A stretch of DNA of 64,000 nucleotides from Firmicutes bacterium UBA5449 (GCA_002424305.1 DIQZ01000051.1:3497-67496), one strand, 5' to 3'. Counted from the first letter of the stretch, positions 1 through 53,309 are shown. Numbers and translations are program-made. The notes: generated from the letters alone by a model not told the origin.

Positions 1-416
1 CCGCCCGTCATCCCCTGCTTTTCCCCGATATAACCTGCACCAACCATGTGACCTGCTTGTCCTCGGACTCGTATCAAGCCTCCTGACATACCTGCGCCGG
101 GGAAACCTCCGACGTCTCCGTCCACTCGGATCTCTCCACCGGTCATACCTGCACCAAGGTGCATTCCCGCCGGGCCGGCAACAGTAAGAAGGCCTGAAGC
201 CATGTTATGTCCAAGGTATTTCACCTTGGACAGGTTCCCTTCAACATGTATATGCAGTTCAGCTCCGGAGCCGCTGACTTTCACATCAAAGAAATCATCT
301 ATTTGCATCGTTTCATTACCGTATAACAGGGGTAGCTCTTGAATTTCCTTCTCCGATTTGCCCAGCAAGACAGCAGGGCTAATGCTCTCAGCTTCAAGAG
401 GGACTTGTGGTAACAC
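1..416 (-). CDS. fwdC: Formylmethanofuran dehydrogenase subunit C, N-terminal part (3' end of the gene lies beyond the window start)
   Basis: The reverse-complement of 1..416 translates in one open frame. A GTG start at 416..414 lies a few nt after the fwdA stop. The product begins MLPQVPLEAESISPAVLLGKSEKEIQELPLLYGNETMQIDDFFDVKVSG. It continues with glycine-rich repeats (GPAGMHLGAGMTGGEIRVDGDVGGFPGAGMSGGLIRVRGQAGHMVGAGYIGE) typical of the FwdC/GltB-C beta-helix. The six-frame track does not list it because it is truncated by the window edge. Confidence 0.75.
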   Translation of the reverse strand, partial: MLPQVPLEAESISPAVLLGKSEKEIQELPLLYGNETMQIDDFFDVKVSGSGAELHIHVEGNLSKVKYLGHNMASGLLTVAGPAGMHLGAGMTGGEIRVDGDVGGFPGAGMSGGLIRVRGQAGHMVGAGYIGEKQGMTG

Positions 417-418
417 TT

Positions 419-2053
419 TTAGTCCGAAATATACGGTGGGCATGGAACCACCTCACAAGGCATAAACTTATCTCTTGCTACAGGGTAATTTTCCAAAGCA
501 ATACTATAGAACTGACTGAACTTAGGCTTGAGCCACTCAATAATATCTTCATCTTCCTCTAGATCCGCGACATACGTCTTGCCGACTGTCTCAGACAGTA
601 TTTCTCCTTCTCTTACTACAACCTCTCCGCCTTTTAGGACATAGACAGCTTCTCGAAACATTGCCTCATAATCACTGTTCGGCCTGTAAACGGCGATATC
701 TGCGTCAGCTCCAATCCCAAGATGTCCCTTGTTTGCAAGGCCCAACGTTTTTGCAGGTCCTGCCCGGGTGATTATTGCGATCTCTTCCAGCGTATATTCC
801 CTGGTAAGCTCCGGAAGCTCGCTGGAGCCAAGCGCCCTCTTGCTTACTGTTTGTGCTGTTTCTTCCCGGTAATCACGATCCATAAGAAGCTTGATGACCC
901 ATGGATATGAAGTGAACGGCCCACCGTTGGGGTGATCCGTTGTAAGAGAGATCTGCCACGGATTTTCCACCGTCAAGAACAACTCCAGCCCGGCAATCCA
1001 CTGTATAGCACCGGCATAAGTCCTCTTTCTGTAGTTGAGAGGCACAATACCTGACTGGGTTTCCATCTCTACCTCTTTACTTACCCATCGCTCCTTTGTT
1101 AACCTGTGCAAACTGTGTTGAAGAGGAGCGTCTGCAGTCATGGTGACTGCAGGACCAAACACAACTTGGCCCACATCCATGGTGATATTGGGGTTGGCAT
1201 TGACATACTCTGCCAACTTCCTGGCAGAAGACGCGAAAGGCCTTCCCTTTTTAGGGCCATATGCACCAAACTGCATGTGTGTAATATGGAGCCGTCTGCC
1301 TTCAGCCAATGCCATGGTTTCCAGGGTCGTCTCTCCGCTGGTGGGTTGTCCCAGGTTATTGCAGTGAAGGTGTAGAGGATGAGGCAATCCTAAGGCTTCA
1401 TTGACGTCAATCAGGGCATCAATGATCTCGCGGGGAGTAACTCCATACCCAACCGCTTCATCGTCGAGGCTGTTGACATTGCCACGTTTTCTCCAGTTCG
1501 CGCCTCCCCCCGGATTAACCGCTTTGATCCCGTATCCACCGGATGCCCTAATGAGGAAGGCAACATAGTCCCTAAGTCTCTCGAACTCACCATCCCGAAT
1601 GAGGCTTAAGACAAAGTGATTGCTACCCATCAGAACCAACATACCTTTATCGACAATGGGGATATCAGCCAGTTCCTCGTGGACATGACGCGCTTCAAGA
1701 GGAGGAGCTGCCGCTTCTGTAACATACGTGTAACCCATCCGGGCATATCGATGGCCTGTTATGAATGTGGACGGAACTACATGGCCTACGCCGCTCCTGG
1801 TAGTCGCAGTGCGCGGTACAGGGTCAGTACGGTGATCCTCGGGACAAAGCACACGGCCTACATTGACCTTGGGACCTGCGATATGCGAATGTATATCAAC
1901 TCCACCCGGCATCACTATAAGGCCCTTAGCGTCTATTACGCGGGCTCCCGAAGACGAGGGTACTATTTTGCCGTCTGAGACGTAAATATCCCCTACCTCT
2001 CCGGCTTTGCCGTTCAATGGGTCATAGATAGAGCCACCTTGTATGCAAAGCAC
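419..2053 (-). CDS. fwdA: Formylmethanofuran dehydrogenase subunit A (amidohydrolase-fold)
   Basis: 544 aa. N-terminus MLCIQGGSIYDPLNGKAGEVGDIYVSDGKIV...MPGGVDIHSHIAG is the FwdA/FhcA amidohydrolase signature, with an HxH metal site. It lies in operon context with fwdB, fwdD, ftr and fwdC. Confidence 0.8.
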   Translation of the reverse strand: MLCIQGGSIYDPLNGKAGEVGDIYVSDGKIVPSSSGARVIDAKGLIVMPGGVDIHSHIAGPKVNVGRVLCPEDHRTDPVPRTATTRSGVGHVVPSTFITGHRYARMGYTYVTEAAAPPLEARHVHEELADIPIVDKGMLVLMGSNHFVLSLIRDGEFERLRDYVAFLIRASGGYGIKAVNPGGGANWRKRGNVNSLDDEAVGYGVTPREIIDALIDVNEALGLPHPLHLHCNNLGQPTSGETTLETMALAEGRRLHITHMQFGAYGPKKGRPFASSARKLAEYVNANPNITMDVGQVVFGPAVTMTADAPLQHSLHRLTKERWVSKEVEMETQSGIVPLNYRKRTYAGAIQWIAGLELFLTVENPWQISLTTDHPNGGPFTSYPWVIKLLMDRDYREETAQTVSKRALGSSELPELTREYTLEEIAIITRAGPAKTLGLANKGHLGIGADADIAVYRPNSDYEAMFREAVYVLKGGEVVVREGEILSETVGKTYVADLEEDEDIIEWLKPKFSQFYSIALENYPVARDKFMPCEVVPCPPYISD

Positions 2054-3315
2054 TCTACCACCCCCTTGTCAATGGCAAGCAGAATATCGCAATCAGTGGG
2101 ATACTTTGAGTCAATCACTTTCTTTAGAGGCAGAGGAACCTGGTCCATCCTGTATGCGGTTCCGGAAGCTGCCACCCCAATAGGCGCCGAGGGCAGGAAT
2201 ACTCGAGCAAACTTTGCTGTAGCTGAGTAGTTGGGATCTATGACTATCGTCGGTATCTTACCTAGATATTCACCTGCACGGGCAGGCAGAGTCGCCGCAG
2301 GGTCTGACGCTACAACCAACGCTGCGTCTACTTCCTCACGACAGAGAAGGTCCGTCACTGTGAACTCACCCGGACCATACCTTGGATATCCACGGCTGAA
2401 GTTGATACCAAATGGATAGCCGGTCTGCCAAGTCAGGACTGTCTCAGCTCCTGCCACATTCCCGTGACCACGCATAGGTATAACAGTGAACGCTGTCTTC
2501 TCATTTAGGTCATGCACAAGGGACAGAGCTTGTTGTACGTTGTAATGGGTCCCACGAGTCATGGTAAGTCCCATTCCGAAAAAGAACACCCCGTATTCAG
2601 CATCTTGGAGCACGCTTGAGGTATTTAGAATCTCGTCCCGACTGATCCCTCCAAAAGTATCTCCTCTGAGTTCATTGCCGGAAAGGACAGCTCTTAGTGC
2701 TGTCAAGACTTGAAAATCTCCGTTTGGTTCCACTTGCAAAAAGATGTCTGCAGCTTTTGCAGTAGCAGTTCTCCTCACATCTGCAACAATTATCCTGCGG
2801 TCACGTCTACCCCCTTCTGTGTTGAGTCCCTTTGCTTGAACTGAATAGCGACTGAAATGCCTGGGATGAGCTTCTACCGGGTTACAGCCCCAGAAGACTA
2901 CCACATCCGCCCTGTTCTTGACTTCACCAAGTGTACATGTGGATAAACCTACAAGCTGTTTTGCCACTGTGCCCGGGCCATGGCATACTGAGGATGTAGA
3001 ATCAATGCTTGCCCCAAGAGTCTCCCCGAGCTTGACAGCAGCAGCTTGAGCTTCACTGCCTGCGCTGGACAACCCATATATAAGTGGATGTCTGGCTTTC
3101 GCCAGTATCTCAACGGCAGCGTCCAGAGCTTCGGAGAAATCCACCTCTTTCCCGTCAACAAGTGGCACTTCATTATCTATCGGGCTCAAGAACTTGCTTC
3201 GGGAAATAGCGCAGCCTCCCCTCACCTTGGAGATTGTGTTTCCCTCAATCTCCAGCACAATGTCGTCGCAAAGGGAACCACAAAAAGAACAGACAATATT
3301 TTCAAGTCTTCTCAT
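2014..3315 (-). CDS. fwdB: Formylmethanofuran dehydrogenase subunit B (molybdopterin/tungstopterin oxidoreductase fold)
   Basis: 433 aa. An N-terminal Cys cluster (CSFCGSLCDD...GGC) is consistent with a [4Fe-4S] site. An SSVCHGPG motif is consistent with a Cys metal ligand (a Cys codon, not Sec). Size and fold are typical of FwdB. It overlaps the fwdA start by 40 nt. Confidence 0.8.
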   Translation of the reverse strand: MRRLENIVCSFCGSLCDDIVLEIEGNTISKVRGGCAISRSKFLSPIDNEVPLVDGKEVDFSEALDAAVEILAKARHPLIYGLSSAGSEAQAAAVKLGETLGASIDSTSSVCHGPGTVAKQLVGLSTCTLGEVKNRADVVVFWGCNPVEAHPRHFSRYSVQAKGLNTEGGRRDRRIIVADVRRTATAKAADIFLQVEPNGDFQVLTALRAVLSGNELRGDTFGGISRDEILNTSSVLQDAEYGVFFFGMGLTMTRGTHYNVQQALSLVHDLNEKTAFTVIPMRGHGNVAGAETVLTWQTGYPFGINFSRGYPRYGPGEFTVTDLLCREEVDAALVVASDPAATLPARAGEYLGKIPTIVIDPNYSATAKFARVFLPSAPIGVAASGTAYRMDQVPLPLKKVIDSKYPTDCDILLAIDKGVVECFAYKVALSMTH

Positions 3316-3666
3316 CTATGTCTTGCGCCTCCTGACCTTACATGGGATGCCCTTAAATCCGGGCATACCACTTCCTTCAGTTGCGTCCCGTGTTAGTCTA
3401 TTTGCGGGAGGACCGTACGGTATAAAGATAATACCTTCCGGCAGATCTCCTTTGCGACATAAGAATCGACCGACACCAAAGTCTGTAGATATCTCAACAG
3501 AGTCTCCATGTTTGAGGCCAAGCATCTCCATGGTGGATGAACTTAACTCAACCAGACTCGTCTCCTTCTTATACACGTCAGAATCCTTACCGTCTGCGAC
3601 ACCGACTCCCTGCCTCAAGGTTCGACCTGTGATAAGAATGGCGTGGATTTCCGGAATAAAGGCCAC
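3316..3666 (-). CDS. fwdD: Formylmethanofuran dehydrogenase subunit D (molybdopterin dinucleotide-binding domain)
   Basis: 116 aa small subunit located directly upstream of fwdB; its stop abuts the fwdB start. The sequence (ILITGRTLRQGVGV...GIIFIPYGPPANRL) matches the molydop_binding/FwdD small-subunit pattern. Confidence 0.7.
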   Translation of the reverse strand: MAFIPEIHAILITGRTLRQGVGVADGKDSDVYKKETSLVELSSSTMEMLGLKHGDSVEISTDFGVGRFLCRKGDLPEGIIFIPYGPPANRLTRDATEGSGMPGFKGIPCKVRRRKT

Positions 3667-3772: not shown

Positions 3773-4666
3773 TTACTTCAACACGTCATATAGGCGAATA
3801 TGGTGTTTCCCGAGCTTATCTCCGTAATTACCGGCTGTAATCTCTACAATCCCAGGGATACAAGCTGCTCTTATTCCAAGCTTCATAGCTTCTTTGACTG
3901 ATTCCATATTCAGGCCGTTTATTACGATTTCATATACGCATGTAACACCGGGTGGGACTAAAGTGTCCTCAACCTTGTCACGAACAGTGGGACAGAATCT
4001 TTGATTGCTTGAAGCAGGAAGGAAGTCGTAATTCACCCCACCAATCTTACTACCGGAGCGGACTACTCCCTTTGGAAACGGAAGAAGCACGCCTGGCACC
4101 TTCCCGGCAGCTTCCACAGCTTTGACAGCAGCCTCAAGACACGCCTTCCTGTCCTTACCGAGTATGATGAAATTGCCTCCGCCGATCCCTTCAGCTACCC
4201 CATAAGTGCCTTCGATGATGAATTCTCCGTCCATCATAGGCACATGCCAGTAAGTAGCTCCATTCTTTTCCTCGCTGTACTCATAGCCATCACCGAAGTA
4301 ACGCAACATTTCACCTGTTTCAACCTTGTTTTCACTCTTAAGGCCATTGAATGCGGATGTAGTGGCACAAGTCAATACACACATCCCGACACGTCCAAAG
4401 AGCTGGTCATGGAGTTTCTCCTTATCCAGGGCAAAGATTAGTATGGACACACCGGGCCTTCCGTCCGGGGTGTCTTTGACCTCCCCTTCAATGCCTGCTT
4501 CTCCCCCACAACCAATGATTGAAGTGCCCATTCCTACAGCTTCTCTTGCAGCTTCCATCGCCCAGTCCATAGTATCGGCGGTCACAATCACTCGTGTCCC
4601 AAGAAAATCAAAAGCCTCTGCATACGTGTCCTTGATGGGAACGCCATTGATAATCAACAAGATCAC
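3773..4666 (-). CDS. ftr: Formylmethanofuran:tetrahydromethanopterin N-formyltransferase
   Basis: 297 aa, the expected size for Ftr/FhcD. The N-terminus MILLIINGVPIKDTYAEAFDF and overall composition match Ftr. It is the first biosynthetic-pathway gene upstream of fwdDBAC in the same operon. Confidence 0.8.
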   Translation of the reverse strand: MILLIINGVPIKDTYAEAFDFLGTRVIVTADTMDWAMEAAREAVGMGTSIIGCGGEAGIEGEVKDTPDGRPGVSILIFALDKEKLHDQLFGRVGMCVLTCATTSAFNGLKSENKVETGEMLRYFGDGYEYSEEKNGATYWHVPMMDGEFIIEGTYGVAEGIGGGNFIILGKDRKACLEAAVKAVEAAGKVPGVLLPFPKGVVRSGSKIGGVNYDFLPASSNQRFCPTVRDKVEDTLVPPGVTCVYEIVINGLNMESVKEAMKLGIRAACIPGIVEITAGNYGDKLGKHHIRLYDVLK

Positions 4667-4735: not shown

Positions 4736-5923
4736 TCATCCGGTTCGGCGCACATTTGCAAGCACCCAAGCTTGCTGCTTTTCAAGGGCGGCAAGACACC
4801 CATCCCGTGACTTGGCTTTCGCAAATACCGTGCATAACGGCGTCTCAGCCGGAATTTCCTCACCAGGCTGTGGAATATCACGAATTCCCCTGTCGAACCA
4901 CGCATTGGTGTCGACTGTCACCAGATCCCACGGAGCATAAACGATTGTCTTACCCCAGCATGAACCTGAATAACCCGGGTTCTCTTCAAAAAGTGAATGC
5001 CTATTCGGCAACCTATTTTGAAAGGCTTCCACGTGTAGCCCGAAAATATCAAGTCCGTATGCCTTTCGATAAAGCTCCATGGAGGAAGAATAGCGTGGGT
5101 TTACCTCTAGAAACAACACATTTCCTTCATCCGTGACAAGAAAGTCTATGCCATTTACGCCTATGAGACCGCATTTCGCAGTGATAACATTGACCATTCT
5201 TCTGACTTTTGCCAGCACCTGCTCTCTTACTGAGCTGGAACTGTTACAGTGTGAAAAGGTCAGTGGCACAATATTCCCGCAGTAGAGAAAAGGTTTGGCT
5301 GCAAACTTTTCCAATCCGCAAAGCTGTTCACTTAACCCGAGTATCACAGCATCTGTTCCATTTGCGACAAAAGACACTGACGCCGGTGTAGCTTGACAGA
5401 ACTCCTGTAACATGTACCCGTCAGGTACAGGGATATCGGGCAAAGCCCGGACTATCCTATTGCCACCGCCTGAGTCATGGGGTTTGCACAACCAATCACC
5501 CGGCGGAGGCGAACCCCTCCAAACGTGCAAGGTTTTTGGATAATTGATGTCTACCTTCTGTAACAGGTGATGTAGCCGTTGAAAATCCCTGGCTGCCATG
5601 ACTGTCTGGGCAGAGTTCCCCAAGAGCTTCTTGTGCTCTGCAAGATGTCTTATGATCTCCGGGTGGTTTTCCACACTCGACGTATAAGCAACAGCTTCAT
5701 GGCTGACCCCGGTCGCCTCGAGCTTGTGCAGCGCTTCAATAACTATCTCAGGACTGAAACTTGAGGTCAGGAAGTCACGTCTTAGCGAGTAACTCCTGCC
5801 CCATCTCTTCTGATCCATATCGCCGAAATAGTCCAACGTAGTAATGGAATATCCGGCATTACGGCTTAATGCAGCGCATTCTGCCAAGCCTCGAGTGCTA
5901 AAACCCAGTATCAGCAGGTTCAC
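4736..5923 (-). CDS. ATP-grasp domain ligase, probably cofactor (H4MPT or methanofuran) biosynthesis
   Basis: 395 aa. An EVNPRYSSS motif and overall architecture indicate the ATP-grasp fold. It is the first gene of the ftr-fwd operon, with AGGAGG 7 nt upstream of the ATG. Comparable ATP-grasp genes accompany H4MPT-pathway clusters. Confidence 0.55.
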   Translation of the reverse strand: MNLLILGFSTRGLAECAALSRNAGYSITTLDYFGDMDQKRWGRSYSLRRDFLTSSFSPEIVIEALHKLEATGVSHEAVAYTSSVENHPEIIRHLAEHKKLLGNSAQTVMAARDFQRLHHLLQKVDINYPKTLHVWRGSPPPGDWLCKPHDSGGGNRIVRALPDIPVPDGYMLQEFCQATPASVSFVANGTDAVILGLSEQLCGLEKFAAKPFLYCGNIVPLTFSHCNSSSSVREQVLAKVRRMVNVITAKCGLIGVNGIDFLVTDEGNVLFLEVNPRYSSSMELYRKAYGLDIFGLHVEAFQNRLPNRHSLFEENPGYSGSCWGKTIVYAPWDLVTVDTNAWFDRGIRDIPQPGEEIPAETPLCTVFAKAKSRDGCLAALEKQQAWVLANVRRTG

Positions 5924-5960
5924 ATTGCATTTCCTCCTTGTATTCCCCTATTGTCATTAT

Positions 5961-5979
5961 GATGCAAGTTTCGTGCCTG
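5961..5979 (-). promoter_or_regulatory. Sigma-54 (-24/-12) promoter for the ATP-grasp/ftr/fwd operon
   Basis: The minus strand reads CAGGCACGAAACTTGCATC. This is GGCACG-N4-TTGCA with the canonical GG-N10-GC spacing. The predicted transcription start lies about 30 nt upstream of the ATP-grasp ATG. A sigma-54 enhancer-binding protein gene lies immediately upstream. Confidence 0.55.
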
Positions 5980-6050
5980 GAGATTGTAGATGCGTGAGAT
6001 TTCAGATTAGGCCAGCTAGAGTCGTTTCTCCTTGATCATAACGGGAAACA

Positions 6051-6065
6051 CTGAACCACATTCAG
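6051..6065. promoter_or_regulatory. Inverted repeat CTGAA-N5-TTCAG, candidate enhancer (UAS) site
   Basis: Seen directly in the sequence, about 75-90 bp upstream of the sigma-54 promoter. Confidence 0.25.
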
Positions 6066-6179
6066 CAGGAAGATTCGTGGGACTGTATCGATTTGAAACG
6101 CTCTTGCTTTCAAGCCCGGGAATGCATTTTCCATATCAAAACAGGGATTTAGTGGGAAACTATAACTGTTATTGAGCAG

Positions 6180-6198
6180 ATGTCCCAACCTGGGACAT
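6180..6198. promoter_or_regulatory. Perfect palindrome ATGTCCCA-N3-TGGGACAT, candidate enhancer (UAS) site
   Basis: An 8-3-8 perfect inverted repeat lies about 200 bp upstream of the sigma-54 promoter, between the EBP gene stop and the promoter. Confidence 0.35.
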
Positions 6199-6232
6199 GT
6201 ATCATAGTGCTACGATTATCATAACTTTGACT

Positions 6233-8173
6233 CTAGAAGTTCTCTTCGCGCAAGGACGCAAGGTCAATACTGTACTTCTCCAGTTTCCTGTATAGAGTCG
6301 TTCTGCCTACCCCCAACTGCTTGGCAGCAGCGCTCATGTTACCCCCATACAAGGCAAGAGCATTTAAGATCGCATCCCTCTCAACCTCATCGAGGCTTCG
6401 TGGATACGCGTTCAAGGGACGTGTATCCACAGGGAGAATATGCCCATCGGCCCCTGGATCCGATTGCCTTGCGATTCGAGTAGGAAGGTGCTTGAGGCTC
6501 AGAACGCTTCCTTCTAATAGATGATTCGCTTGCTCCATAACATTTTCCAGTTCTCTGACATTACCCGGCCAACTGTATTTCATAAGCACCGCTTCAACTT
6601 CAGGAGTCATTTCTATTGAATCAAGACCGCGTTGCTTTGCGAAGCGTTGAAGGAAACACGTAGCCAGAATCAAGATATCTTCGCCTCTGTCGCGAAGAGG
6701 AGGTATAACCACGTTCACAACGCTGAGACGATAATAAAGGTCCAACCTGAAATGGCCTTCTTTGACTAAACGTGCAATATCCTTGTTCGTTGCAGCAATT
6801 ACCCGTATCTGAACGGGAATAGGCGTATGTCCGCCAATCCTGACTACTTGTTTGTCTTGTAACACCCTCAACAGGCTACTCTGAGTCTCTAAGGGAATAT
6901 CACCTATTTCATCCAAGAACAGTGTGCCCCCGCTGGCAAGTTCGAACTTTCCCGGCCTCCCGCCCCTCCTTGCCCCGGTGAAAGCACCTTCCTCATATCC
7001 GAAAAGTTCACTTTCAACTAAGTCTCTGGGCAACGCTGCGCTGTTTACAGCCACGAACGGGCCGTTCCTGCGCGGACTGGCATTATGGATAGCCTGAGCA
7101 AAAAGCTCTTTACCTGTCCCGCTTTCACCTACCAGAAGGACTGTGGAGTCTGATCTGGCAACCCGGCGGGCCATGTCAATTTTTTCAAGGAATTTCGGAT
7201 CTTCCCCGATAAGGTCGGAAAACGTAAACCTGGCCTGTGCTCCTACCATTCGTGTAACAAGGCGCTGCACTGACTTCATCTCTCTAAATGTTAGAACAAT
7301 CCCGAAAACCCGGCCTTGTTGAGAGCAAATTGCCCTACTGGTAACAGTCACATGCACCCTGCGATTATTCAAGGTCACAGCAAGTTCCCGGTCATTGAAA
7401 CCTTCTCTACCGGTCTTAATAGCCTGTAGCAGAGGAAGTGATTCCCGAAATATCTCATCTGCTCGCTGGCCAATGCAAGCCATAGGCTTGAGCCCGAAAA
7501 TCCTTCCTGCTACGTGATTCATGTGAGTAATAATACCATCATTGTTTATGGCGACCAGTCCGTCTGACATAGCTTGAACTACTGAATAAAGCTGCTCAGT
7601 TGTGCGTTCTAACTCGAGTTGATTTTCGATGGCTGCTGCGGCTGCCGCAACCATGCCAAGAGTATGGGGATGAGAGGCGTCTTTGGAGCCGACAACCCCA
7701 AGAATACCGAAAAAAGCCCCCTCAGGACTTGAGATAGGGGCTGCAGCTCCGGCTAAATCATGATATGCCTTCAGGTAGTGTTCATCACCTATGACCTGAC
7801 AAGGCTTTCTCTCACTAAGCACAAGGCTGATGGCATTGGTGCCATGCTGTTCTTCACTCCATAAAGTCCCTACTTCAAGAGGTACACAAGAAAGTTGTGA
7901 GAGCCTGGACTCCCCGGTGACTGAAATCAAATAACCTTCAGAATCACCTAAGAATACCTGCCGATTAGCTGACACAAAAGAAGCGATTCTTTCCATAAAA
8001 GGGTGGGCTACTCTCGCCATTGAAAGAGAAGGTTTTAGATGACTTTCCAACTCCTTACCGACAAGCTTCACTGAAGTAGGCTCCTGATCTGAATTCATAC
8101 CTCGATTGCAACAGCGATCCCAGGATGCTGCAACTATTGAATTCATGGTATTCTTTCGTGTAACCCTGTCCAT
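6233..8173 (-). CDS. Sigma-54-dependent transcriptional activator (GAF/PAS sensor, AAA+ domain, Fis-type HTH)
   Basis: 646 aa. It has a GESGTGKE Walker A, a GAFTGA-like region (EEGAFTGAR), and a C-terminal HTH (AAAKQLGVGRTTLYRKL). The N-terminal part is sensor-like, with an HMNHVAGRIFG PAS-type segment. Confidence 0.85.
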   Translation of the reverse strand: MDRVTRKNTMNSIVAASWDRCCNRGMNSDQEPTSVKLVGKELESHLKPSLSMARVAHPFMERIASFVSANRQVFLGDSEGYLISVTGESRLSQLSCVPLEVGTLWSEEQHGTNAISLVLSERKPCQVIGDEHYLKAYHDLAGAAAPISSPEGAFFGILGVVGSKDASHPHTLGMVAAAAAAIENQLELERTTEQLYSVVQAMSDGLVAINNDGIITHMNHVAGRIFGLKPMACIGQRADEIFRESLPLLQAIKTGREGFNDRELAVTLNNRRVHVTVTSRAICSQQGRVFGIVLTFREMKSVQRLVTRMVGAQARFTFSDLIGEDPKFLEKIDMARRVARSDSTVLLVGESGTGKELFAQAIHNASPRRNGPFVAVNSAALPRDLVESELFGYEEGAFTGARRGGRPGKFELASGGTLFLDEIGDIPLETQSSLLRVLQDKQVVRIGGHTPIPVQIRVIAATNKDIARLVKEGHFRLDLYYRLSVVNVVIPPLRDRGEDILILATCFLQRFAKQRGLDSIEMTPEVEAVLMKYSWPGNVRELENVMEQANHLLEGSVLSLKHLPTRIARQSDPGADGHILPVDTRPLNAYPRSLDEVERDAILNALALYGGNMSAAAKQLGVGRTTLYRKLEKYSIDLASLREENF

Positions 8174-8178
8174 TTTCC

Positions 8179-9183
8179 TCAGTCTTCCCCTTCCGACTCT
8201 ACGCAGACTCCTTGATTACATGCCCTGAGACAACGAACTTGAGCTCGAGCACCTGACTCCTCCAGGTACTTATGAAGATGTGCTTCGATGTTCCAGGCGG
8301 CTTTCTCCCCTTCCACTATCCCATAGACCGTTGGCCCCCACGAACTCTGCCCTGCTCCGGTAGCACCGGAATTCAGAAGCAGTCGAACGATTCCCTCTGC
8401 GGACGGATGACTGTACAATCCCCCTTGCACAGAGGCGAATTGCTTGCCGATAGTCCACTGGATCTCTGTCAACGCTTGCCCAAAAGATTCAACGTTCTTC
8501 TCCAGAAGCGCCGGGAGGAGCTGCATGACAAGAAGTCTGCAAATCAGCCCCACGTCCTCAGGAGGTATGGGAGGTAAAATCTCTAAAGATATGTTTTTCC
8601 GTTTTGCCCTAAATTCAGTGGCGGTTTCGGGTGTGACAACAATGAAGTACCAATCCTCAGGAAACGGATGTCTGAATATGATGGGAGGTGTGCAGAACTC
8701 AGCGTCAGGCCTGTCAAATGTTCTCGGTATTCCGCTGGCAACGACAAAGCCCCCGTATTTGAAGATTCCTAAACATGCGTCGGTCCTATACCCTCGTAAG
8801 GCGATATCGGCTATATCTTCAATCGTATAGTCAATACTGTAAAGGCTTGCGAGAGCTGTTCCCACCGCCAGTCTCAGTTGGACGGATGAGCCGAGGCCGA
8901 CGTGAACCGGAATCGCCTCGTCAATCTGTAGCCGCGCTCCACCTCTTATACCGATCCTTATGAGAAAATCTCGGGCAATAGCCTTGACTCTCCTGCTATC
9001 ATAGCCTTGGACAGTTAATTCATCGGCCTCTTCAGCCAATATGACAATCTTCGGACCTTTAAGGGCCACCCCTATACCCCCATACATGCGCCCCAGAGAA
9101 CCATTGAGGTCAAGCTGTCCTAAGTGCAAGCGGGATGGGGATTCGACCCTTAACATCCAAGTCACCAGCCTTCCATAGTGCAA
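8179..9183 (-). CDS. mptG: GHMP-kinase-family protein, probable beta-ribofuranosylaminobenzene 5'-phosphate synthase (H4MPT biosynthesis)
   Basis: 334 aa. It has an N-terminal SRLHLGQLDLNGSLGR motif and the GHMP motif VGLGSSVQLRLAVGTALA. Size and motifs match the beta-RFAP synthase family. It is co-directional with the EBP and the ftr/fwd operon. Confidence 0.55.
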   Translation of the reverse strand: MHYGRLVTWMLRVESPSRLHLGQLDLNGSLGRMYGGIGVALKGPKIVILAEEADELTVQGYDSRRVKAIARDFLIRIGIRGGARLQIDEAIPVHVGLGSSVQLRLAVGTALASLYSIDYTIEDIADIALRGYRTDACLGIFKYGGFVVASGIPRTFDRPDAEFCTPPIIFRHPFPEDWYFIVVTPETATEFRAKRKNISLEILPPIPPEDVGLICRLLVMQLLPALLEKNVESFGQALTEIQWTIGKQFASVQGGLYSHPSAEGIVRLLLNSGATGAGQSSWGPTVYGIVEGEKAAWNIEAHLHKYLEESGARAQVRCLRACNQGVCVESEGED

Positions 9184-9377: not shown

Positions 9378-9454
9378 GGTAGATGTAGCTCAATGGTGAG
9401 AGCGCTGGACTGTGGCTCCAGAGGTTGCGGGTTCGAGCCCCGTCATCTACCCCA
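9378..9454 (+). tRNA. tRNA-His (anticodon GTG) with encoded G-1
   Basis: Manual fold: an 8-bp acceptor stem including a G-1:C73 pair (GGTAGATG/CATCTACC), a D-stem GCTC/GAGC, an anticodon stem CTGGA/TCCAG with loop CTGTGGC (anticodon GTG), and a T-arm GCGGG-TTCGAGC-CCCGT. The 3' CCA is encoded. Confidence 0.85.
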
Positions 9455-52763: not shown

Positions 52764-53309
52764 TCAAAACTCAGGTTCAATCAGACCATAGTTCCCGTCT
52801 TTACGGCGATATACTACGTTAACCTCATCTGTATCACTATTAGAGAAAACAAAGAAGTCGTGGCCAAGCAGCTCCATCTGCATTACGGCTTCTTGAGTTG
52901 ACATAGGCTTCATGGCAAATCGCTTTGTTTTAACAATACGTGCTTCTTCCCGGCGTTCCTCCAAGTTGGCAATTCCCGGGGAAAACTCTGCTTCTGTAAG
53001 CTTTGTCCCTGTTTGACGCAGTCTACGATTGATCTTGGTCTTATACTTACGAATTTGTCTCTCGATCTTATCCACTGCCCCATCCACTGACGCAAAGAGA
53101 TCCCCGGTCTTTTCCTCACCGCGTAGGAGAAGGCCGTTTACCTGAATCGTGACCTCAGCAATCTGAAGCCCTTTCTCAGCACTGATGACCACCTGAGCAT
53201 TTACTGAATCTCCTTCGAAGAACCTCTGGAGCTTATGTACCTTTTTTTCAGCGTAATCTCTGAGAGCTTTTGACAGTTCAACGTTTTTGGTTTTCATGGT
53301 GATATTCAT
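52764..53309 (-). CDS. hpf: Ribosome hibernation promoting factor (long form)
   Basis: 181 aa. It has an N-terminal RaiA/HPF domain (MNITMKTKNVELSKALRDYAEKKVHKLQRFF) and a C-terminal dimerisation extension. Confidence 0.85.
   Translation of the reverse strand: MNITMKTKNVELSKALRDYAEKKVHKLQRFFEGDSVNAQVVISAEKGLQIAEVTIQVNGLLLRGEEKTGDLFASVDGAVDKIERQIRKYKTKINRRLRQTGTKLTEAEFSPGIANLEERREEARIVKTKRFAMKPMSTQEAVMQMELLGHDFFVFSNSDTDEVNVVYRRKDGNYGLIEPEF

Follow-up and report, generated by a model that had tools for sequence, protein, structure and literature searches.

Units made up of a sigma-54 promoter and its activator are textbook regulatory systems. AcoR controls the acetoin catabolism genes (acoABCL/acoXABC) via sigma-54 (SigL) in Bacillus subtilis and Cupriavidus necator, and MmoR is the sigma-54 activator that acts at the mmoX promoter of methanotrophs, where it gates a C1-metabolism operon. 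DhaR of Escherichia coli senses the partner proteins DhaK and DhaL, and acts at a sigma-70 promoter. What is known of the methanofuran/H4MPT C1 genes of bacteria comes mainly from aerobic methylotrophs, and how these genes are regulated is little understood.

Here we analyse a stretch of 64,000 nt from Firmicutes bacterium UBA5449 (GCA_002424305.1 DIQZ01000051.1:3497-67496), referred to below as the window, in which the gene of an AcoR/DhaR-like sigma-54 activator precedes a methanofuran/H4MPT C1 operon, the relevant genes all being on the minus strand. As judged from its sequence, the 309-nt gap between the two is very probably a complete sigma-54 control region, and the operon would be inducible through the adjacent activator. 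The target is new for a sigma-54 unit of the AcoR family. The preliminary description of this DNA had supposed that such control of a methanofuran/H4MPT C1 module was not previously described, and our full-text literature searches likewise found no sigma-54 account of it. Sigma-54 control of fhc is not described in the literature searched either, apart from a transcriptome hint, the only one that we found: in Paraburkholderia phymatum, an rpoN mutation lowers fhcA (Bphy_6505) by 3.5 log2 units (PMC5979394).

Results

Gene order and operon content

The features of the locus are collected in Table 1. RFAP synthase carries out the first step of H4MPT synthesis, and its gene ends 5 nt upstream of the activator gene, the two genes being probably co-transcribed. 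Between an MFS transporter gene and this pair lies a tRNA-His gene (GTG; 9379..9454, plus strand), which sets the upstream limit of that transcription unit. It is the only Rfam match in the whole window, and no leader RNA was found in the gap.

The operon had been thought to start with ftr. The Pfam and NCBIfam matches correct this, placing the gene of an ATP-grasp protein first and ftr second. No NCBIfam model reaches its cutoff with the ATP-grasp protein, whose orthologues are found in all related loci and which probably has a role in cofactor biosynthesis. The window ends within fwdC; in identical contigs from anaerobic-digester metagenomes (L001, L002), fwdC is followed by genes for a RimK/MptN-like ligase and for CitG-like, MobA-like and FdhD proteins.

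FwdB matches the FwdB of M. wolfeii (5T5I chain B) with an E-value of 7e-129 (433 bits) and keeps the metal-ligating Cys-His motif SVCHGP, while the match to a chain of 6S6Y, which we take to be the methylotroph Fhc complex, reaches 61 bits (E 8e-16). By sequence type, with FwdD present and the Cys-His pair of FwdB kept, we assign the formylmethanofuran dehydrogenase to the archaeal redox Fwd type, on the basis of window 2014..3315 and 3316..3666 and of L001 17731..21697.

Table 1 Features of the activator-operon locus and promoter elements of related loci. Site positions with a minus sign are relative to the predicted transcription start
Feature	Position	Strand	Remarks
RFAP synthase (beta-ribofuranosylaminobenzene 5'-phosphate synthase) gene	8179..9183	-	NCBIfam TIGR00144, 195 bits vs cutoff 113.5
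Sigma-54 activator gene	6233..8173	-	646 aa; GAF-PAS-AAA+-HTH_8, AcoR/DhaR-like
Intergenic gap, activator/operon	5924..6232	-	309 nt; holds promoter and candidate enhancer sites
Distal candidate enhancer site 1	6198..6214	.	CGT-N11-ACA; centre 6206, ~-254; perfect TGT-N11-ACA in four orthologues
Distal candidate enhancer site 2 (palindrome)	6180..6198	.	ATGTCCCA-N3-TGGGACAT = TGT-N11-ACA; centre 6189, ~-237
Conserved block	6142..6159	-	TTTCCCACTAAATCCCTG; centre ~-198; six-species alignment
Proximal candidate enhancer site	6084..6100	.	CGT-N11-ACA; centre 6092, ~-140; perfect TGT-N11-ACA, -138 to -141, in five orthologues
Conserved block	6011..6022	-	ACTCTAGCTGGC; centre ~-64; CTGG invariant, six-species alignment
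Putative sigma-54 promoter	5963..5978	-	AGGCACGAAACTTGCA; GG -25/-24 (5977/5976), GC -13/-12 (5965/5964)
Shine-Dalgarno AGGAGG	5933..5938	-	9 nt before GTG start; GGAGG core kept in 5/6 aligned species
ATP-grasp protein gene	4736..5923	-	operon gene 1; 395 aa, GTG start; Pfam ATP-grasp_3 3.5e-19
ftr, formylmethanofuran:H4MPT formyltransferase	3773..4666	-	operon gene 2; NCBIfam NF002554, 397 bits vs cutoff 297
fwdD	3316..3666	-	Pfam Molydop_binding; NCBIfam FwdD E 9e-24
fwdB	2014..3315	-	TIGR03129, 522 bits; active-site Cys-His retained
fwdA	419..2053	-	TIGR03121, 721 bits
fwdC	1..443	-	cut by window edge; continuation read from identical contigs L001, L002
Promoter element, L011			TGGCATAGACATTGCG
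Promoter element, L095			TGGCATAGACATTGCA
Promoter element, L097			TGGCACAAATATTGCA
Promoter element, L099			TGGCATAAGCATTGCA
Promoter element, L040			TGGCATGGAAATTGCG
Promoter element, L100			TGGCACCATAGTTGCT

A putative sigma-54 promoter element facing the operon

The minus strand of the gap reads CCAGGCACGAAACTTGCATC, and the GG-N10-GC geometry reported for it in the preliminary description is exact. The element AGGCACGAAACTTGCA matches the consensus TGGCACGNNNNTTGCW at 15 of 16 positions, and is the sole match with at most one mismatch in the 64-kb window as well as the only GGCAY-N5-TTGC on either of its strands. The exception is position -26, with A instead of the consensus T, an A that is conserved in the clade. 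By chance, 0.54 matches with at most one mismatch are expected per 64 kb, and at least one was present in 41 of 100 shuffles. What makes the promoter significant is where it lies, which way it points and that relatives conserve it. It sits in the one gap after an activator gene and faces the operon, with the GC doublet 41 nt upstream of the GTG start.

The geometry of the promoter predicts a transcription start near 5952, which would give a 29-nt leader containing AGGAGG. This ribosome-binding motif had earlier been paired with an ATG as the start codon. The motif itself stands; the ATG (5930..5928) does not, as it follows AGGAGG by 2 nt, is out of frame and runs into a stop after 10 codons. 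The coding start is the GTG at 5923..5921, where five of the six aligned species share GTGAACCT and L017 has GTGGATCT.

A six-frame search of the 64-kb window found no RpoN box, a result that says nothing about the rest of the genome, and the conserved GAFTGA activators point to the presence of rpoN in it. In the related contig L007, a second activator gene (184..1539, minus strand) is divergent from a serine dehydratase alpha gene, which is preceded by TGGCACACTTCTTGCG at 1879..1894 (plus strand). This putative activator-promoter pair is independent evidence for the use of sigma-54 promoters in the lineage. The window also contains a gene for a long hibernation-promoting factor (52764..53309, minus strand), which adjoins secA and prfB and matches the Pfam family 'Sigma 54 modulation protein / S30EA'; that family name is historical, and the gene is therefore no evidence for rpoN.

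Conservation of the arrangement in related loci

Related loci (L numbers) were gathered with the sensor domain as query, and then more with DUF2193. Type A loci (L008, L009 Firmicutes bacterium UBA4981, L010 Bacillota bacterium AS08sgBPME_304, L015, L017) have the order of the window, that is, RFAP synthase, activator, gap, ATP-grasp, ftr and fwd. Identity with the activator of the window is 75-81%, except for L008, a low-coverage contig with frameshifts, and these five species together with the window make up the six-species alignment. In type B loci (L011, L007, L018 Clostridia bacterium DTU030; L095, L097), the activator is ~65% identical to that of the window, and RFAP synthase, activator and gap are followed by DUF2193-mtd-ATP-grasp-fwdD, the longer contigs L011 and L007 running on with fwdB, fwdA, ftr, fwdC and mch. 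Only the promoter and DUF2193 are visible in L099, a contig of 1950 nt. In the distant loci L040, from marine sediment, and L100/L101, the activator has the same architecture and stands before DUF2193-MIP, within islands of H4MPT/methanofuran biosynthesis and fwd/ftr/mch genes. All relatives retain the pairing of RFAP synthase and activator.

Nine related lineages and two that are more distant have the sigma-54 element in the corresponding position, and the succession of activator and promoter is kept in 11 of the 11 C1-linked lineages examined, despite rearranged target genes. In type A the promoter reads AGGCAyGArAyTTGCA, with 13 of 16 positions invariant, compared with 61 of the 310 other aligned window positions (20%), and its distance to the GTG is 40-42 nt in the six type A species. 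The gaps of type B and of the distant loci are not alignable with that of the window, yet each has a TGGCAY-N5-TTGC after the activator gene (Table 1). A second sigma-54-like element, CGGCATAATGTTTGCA, was seen 25 nt upstream of the main promoter in L010 (3591..3606, equal to L016 3085..3100); we rejected it as a general feature, since the window lacks it and L015 and L017 have only a degenerate form.

The source organism groups with UBA4981, AS08sgBPME_304 and DTU030, all uncultured anaerobic-digester bacteria. In GTDB, DTU030 has the rank of a candidate phylum, and it comes from anaerobic digesters (PMC11382960). We found no discussion of a complete methanofuran/H4MPT module in such bacteria in the literature searched. 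DUF2193, an Fe-S protein, is encoded first after the promoter in L011 (4775..6257), L040 (10054..11528), L095 (5003..6484), L097 (8001..9482) and L100 (2714..4195), and is followed by a MIP channel gene in L040 and L100/L101. Between these bacteria, together with Moorella, Sporomusa and Desulfitobacterium, and the group of Methanoperedens, ANME-2 and Methanosarcinales, the identity of this protein is 65-85%, which is unusually high across domains.

Candidate enhancer sites upstream of the promoter

The perfect 8-3-8 palindrome noticed in the gap, ATGTCCCAACCTGGGACAT, is present and exact. Two more sites of its TGT-N11-ACA type had been missed, the distal site 1 and the proximal site of Table 1. 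In the window, two of the three candidate sites start with CGT in place of TGT; in orthologues, a perfect TGT-N11-ACA occurs at -251 to -255 and at -138 to -141. The motif occurs 23 times in the window, so that 0.11 occurrences are expected per 309-nt gap, and the five orthologous gaps first examined contain 1, 1, 3, 2 and 1. The palindrome is conserved as sequence and shows no compensatory changes: substitutions in L009, L010 and L015 break pairs, and TGT...ACA is kept. No copy of it was found elsewhere in the window, and no regulon can therefore be defined from 64 kb.

We extended the comparison to paralogues, using 77 loci with activators of the same architecture (L012, L019-L094), in which the promoter lies directly 3' of the activator gene, and scanning the 270 nt upstream of 53 TGGCAY-N5-TTGC promoters. 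TGT-N11-ACA was observed 79 times against 4.6 expected (~17-fold), while spacers of N8-N10 and N12-N14 gave only 3 to 16 upstream of the same 53 promoters. The paralogues share a fixed layout: two distal sites, spaced by exactly 17 bp and typically located at -232/-215, and one proximal site at about -146 (range about -131 to -152). The window follows it, with sites at -254/-237, also 17 bp apart, and at -140. Its distal-to-proximal distance is 97 bp, compared with 68-69 bp in most paralogues, and the inner bases of its sites are G+C-rich (TGTCCCA...TGGGACA), compared with an A+T-rich family consensus. Our literature searches found no published description of this three-dyad TGT-N11-ACA layout. 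Paralogous promoters also have A+T-rich stretches at -90 to -60, which we read as IHF-like.

The preliminary description had named a 5-5-5 inverted repeat as a further upstream element. The repeat is there (CTGAA-TGTGG-TTCAG, 6065..6051), but the six-species alignment shows that it is not conserved, and so short a repeat is expected by chance; it was rejected as an enhancer.

The activator and its relatives

The gene upstream of the gap had been taken for a sigma-54 enhancer-binding protein (EBP) with a GAF/PAS sensor, and its product indeed has GAF, PAS, Sigma54_activat and HTH_8 domains and a GAFTGA loop. The Pfam matches are PF00158 (1.7e-68), PF02954 (8.9e-16, residues 594-634), PF00989 and PF01590, with AAA_lid in addition. 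The loop is intact (EEGAFTGA), and GAFTGA is conserved in the orthologues. The only solved structure that matches the sensor is the GAF-PAS structure of E. coli DhaR, 4LRX (E 2.8e-14, residues 11-310). DhaR is also the best full-length NCBIfam match, with 424 bits against a cutoff of 551 (PrdR, 417 against 795), and because the score is under the DhaR cutoff, the activator is not a DhaR equivalog. Since DhaR senses partner proteins, a small-molecule ligand should not be assumed for the sensor of the activator.

The closest non-orthologous relatives (L019, L020, L022) are 45-47% identical, 36-37% in the sensor domain, and precede sigma-54 promoters and acetoin-dehydrogenase-like E1 alpha/beta genes. 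Other paralogous activators precede genes for opine dehydrogenases, solute-binding proteins or MnhE, so that the activator family is an AcoR-like radiation with many targets.

In five paralogues, the activator stands directly before a sigma-54 promoter and the gene for MtaB, the methanol:corrinoid methyltransferase (L023 10798..12297, L024 10355..11731, L026, L034, L035), with a B12-binding protein gene between the activator and MtaB genes in L034. This suggests that bacterial methanol methyltransferase systems are under sigma-54 control. For the activator of L011, the closest non-orthologues are those of L040 (H4MPT island) and of L023 and L035 (MtaB), with 48% vs 46-47% identity, a gap too small to decide on a single C1-linked clade.

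Alternative explanations for the control region

The sigma-54 promoter might be real and be activated by a different EBP encoded elsewhere, the adjacent activator being a mere neighbour or having other targets. Activators can work in trans, and the related contig L007 does encode a second one; we nevertheless regard this as improbable, because the order of activator and promoter persists in all eleven C1-linked lineages while the target genes are rearranged, and because the upstream sites follow a motif and a layout specific to this activator family. It is less probable still that the -24/-12 match is non-functional and that most transcription of the operon is read-through of the RFAP synthase-activator transcript, or begins at a housekeeping promoter that escaped recognition. 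Such transcription would agree with the lack of a terminator-like site between the activator stop codon and the operon, with a weak sigma-70-like TTGGGA-18-TATAGT at 6188..6159, and with the expectation of a single near-consensus sigma-54 match per 64 kb about half the time. The -24/-12 element is, however, the best conserved block of the gap and recurs where the gaps are unalignable, whereas TTGGGA-18-TATAGT is not conserved and, with 9 of 12 matching positions, was rejected as a sigma-70 promoter. A search for -35/-10 hexamers with 16-18 bp spacing found no sigma-70-type promoter in 5924..5960, the interval that the preliminary description had singled out for a competing start. CATAAT at 5962..5957 was rejected as a -10 hexamer, being without a usable -35 and not conserved. 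Neither the gap nor the spaces between the operon genes yielded a conserved sigma-70-type promoter or any terminator.

In the explanation to which we give the least credence, the palindrome works at the RNA level, as a hairpin that terminates or stabilises the activator mRNA at its 3' end, and not as a DNA enhancer. The palindrome starts 35 nt after the stop codon, and an 8-bp hairpin is predicted for it. As an intrinsic terminator it was rejected: the hairpin is followed by CUGCUCAAUAAC and not by a U-tract, the terminator scan calls none in 5924..6232, and the folding of the region is no stronger than that of shuffled versions (z -1.4). The pair-breaking substitutions in the three type A species are uncompensated and spare TGT...ACA, and across the family the motif stands at fixed distances from sigma-54 promoters, also where its centre is not palindromic.

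Discussion

Enhancer-dependent control by the adjacent activator, as first proposed for this locus, is supported by the domains of the activator, the conservation of the promoter, the layout of the enhancer sites and the absence of a conserved competitor promoter. Under such control, the activator gene would probably be expressed together with that of RFAP synthase from an upstream housekeeping-type promoter, and activator dimers would bind the three TGT-N11-ACA-type sites near -254, -237 and -140. A signal to the GAF-PAS sensor would lead to the assembly of an active AAA+ ring, and the activator would then loop to the closed sigma-54 holoenzyme on AGGCACGAAACTTGCA and use ATP for promoter opening. 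Transcription is predicted to run from ~5952 through the ATP-grasp gene, ftr, fwdD, fwdB, fwdA and fwdC, and then through the MptN-like, CitG-like, MobA-like and FdhD genes. With a signal-gated promoter, the C1 module would be inducible and not constitutive, and, with no terminator between activator gene and operon, some read-through transcription may be added to it. An archaeal-type Fwd/Ftr module behind an ATP-dependent, signal-gated switch would imply that the pathway is used on demand.

It is conceivable, although we would not count on it, that these activators form a dedicated class of C1-signal sensors, responding to formaldehyde, methanol, a related small neutral molecule or a reporting partner protein. 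What they would switch on is a redox-active methanofuran/H4MPT pathway of archaeal type, with Fwd/Ftr (and Mtd/Mch), in uncultured bacteria that are strict anaerobes, the candidate phylum DTU030 among them; in sister lineages, the genes of the Fe-S protein DUF2193 and of a MIP channel would be driven by this promoter as well. If so, the activators would offer the first regulatory handle on the role of the H4MPT pathway in such bacteria, and the regulons of hundreds of uncharacterised AcoR-like activators, those linked to MtaB among them, could be predicted from the fixed three-site layout. The activator, with three defined candidate sites and a clean promoter, could serve as a reporter system for the inducer, and hence for the physiological role of the pathway, and the paralogue-wide enhancer layout offers a practical way of predicting, from sequence alone, which genes an AcoR-like activator controls. 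As regulatory logic the unit is nothing unusual; what makes the inducer, and the role of the pathway in anaerobic bacteria, directly testable are its module, its lineage and the enhancer layout.

Among the known systems, AcoR shares the GAF-PAS-AAA+-HTH_8 architecture with the activator of the window, and the paralogous loci linked to acetoin dehydrogenase carry TGT-N11-ACA sites. The target in the window is, in contrast, a methanofuran/H4MPT C1 operon and not acetoin dehydrogenase, and there are further differences in the sensor, in the G+C-rich interior of the sites and in the longer distance between distal and proximal sites. DhaR is alike as the best full-length match and sole solved sensor homologue, but the window protein falls under the DhaR cutoff, and has GAFTGA and a -24/-12 promoter, whereas DhaR acts at a sigma-70 promoter. 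MmoR differs from the activator of the window in having another type of sensor, soluble methane monooxygenase as its target and aerobic Proteobacteria as hosts. The fhcCDAB/H4MPT islands of aerobic methylotrophs resemble this locus in their homologues of Ftr, FwdA, FwdB and FwdC, and in their RFAP synthase, ATP-grasp, CitG-like and DUF447 genes. In the window, however, the enzyme is of the archaeal Fwd type, and the presence of FwdD and the retained SVCHGP motif of FwdB set it apart from the Fhc complex of the aerobic methylotrophs.
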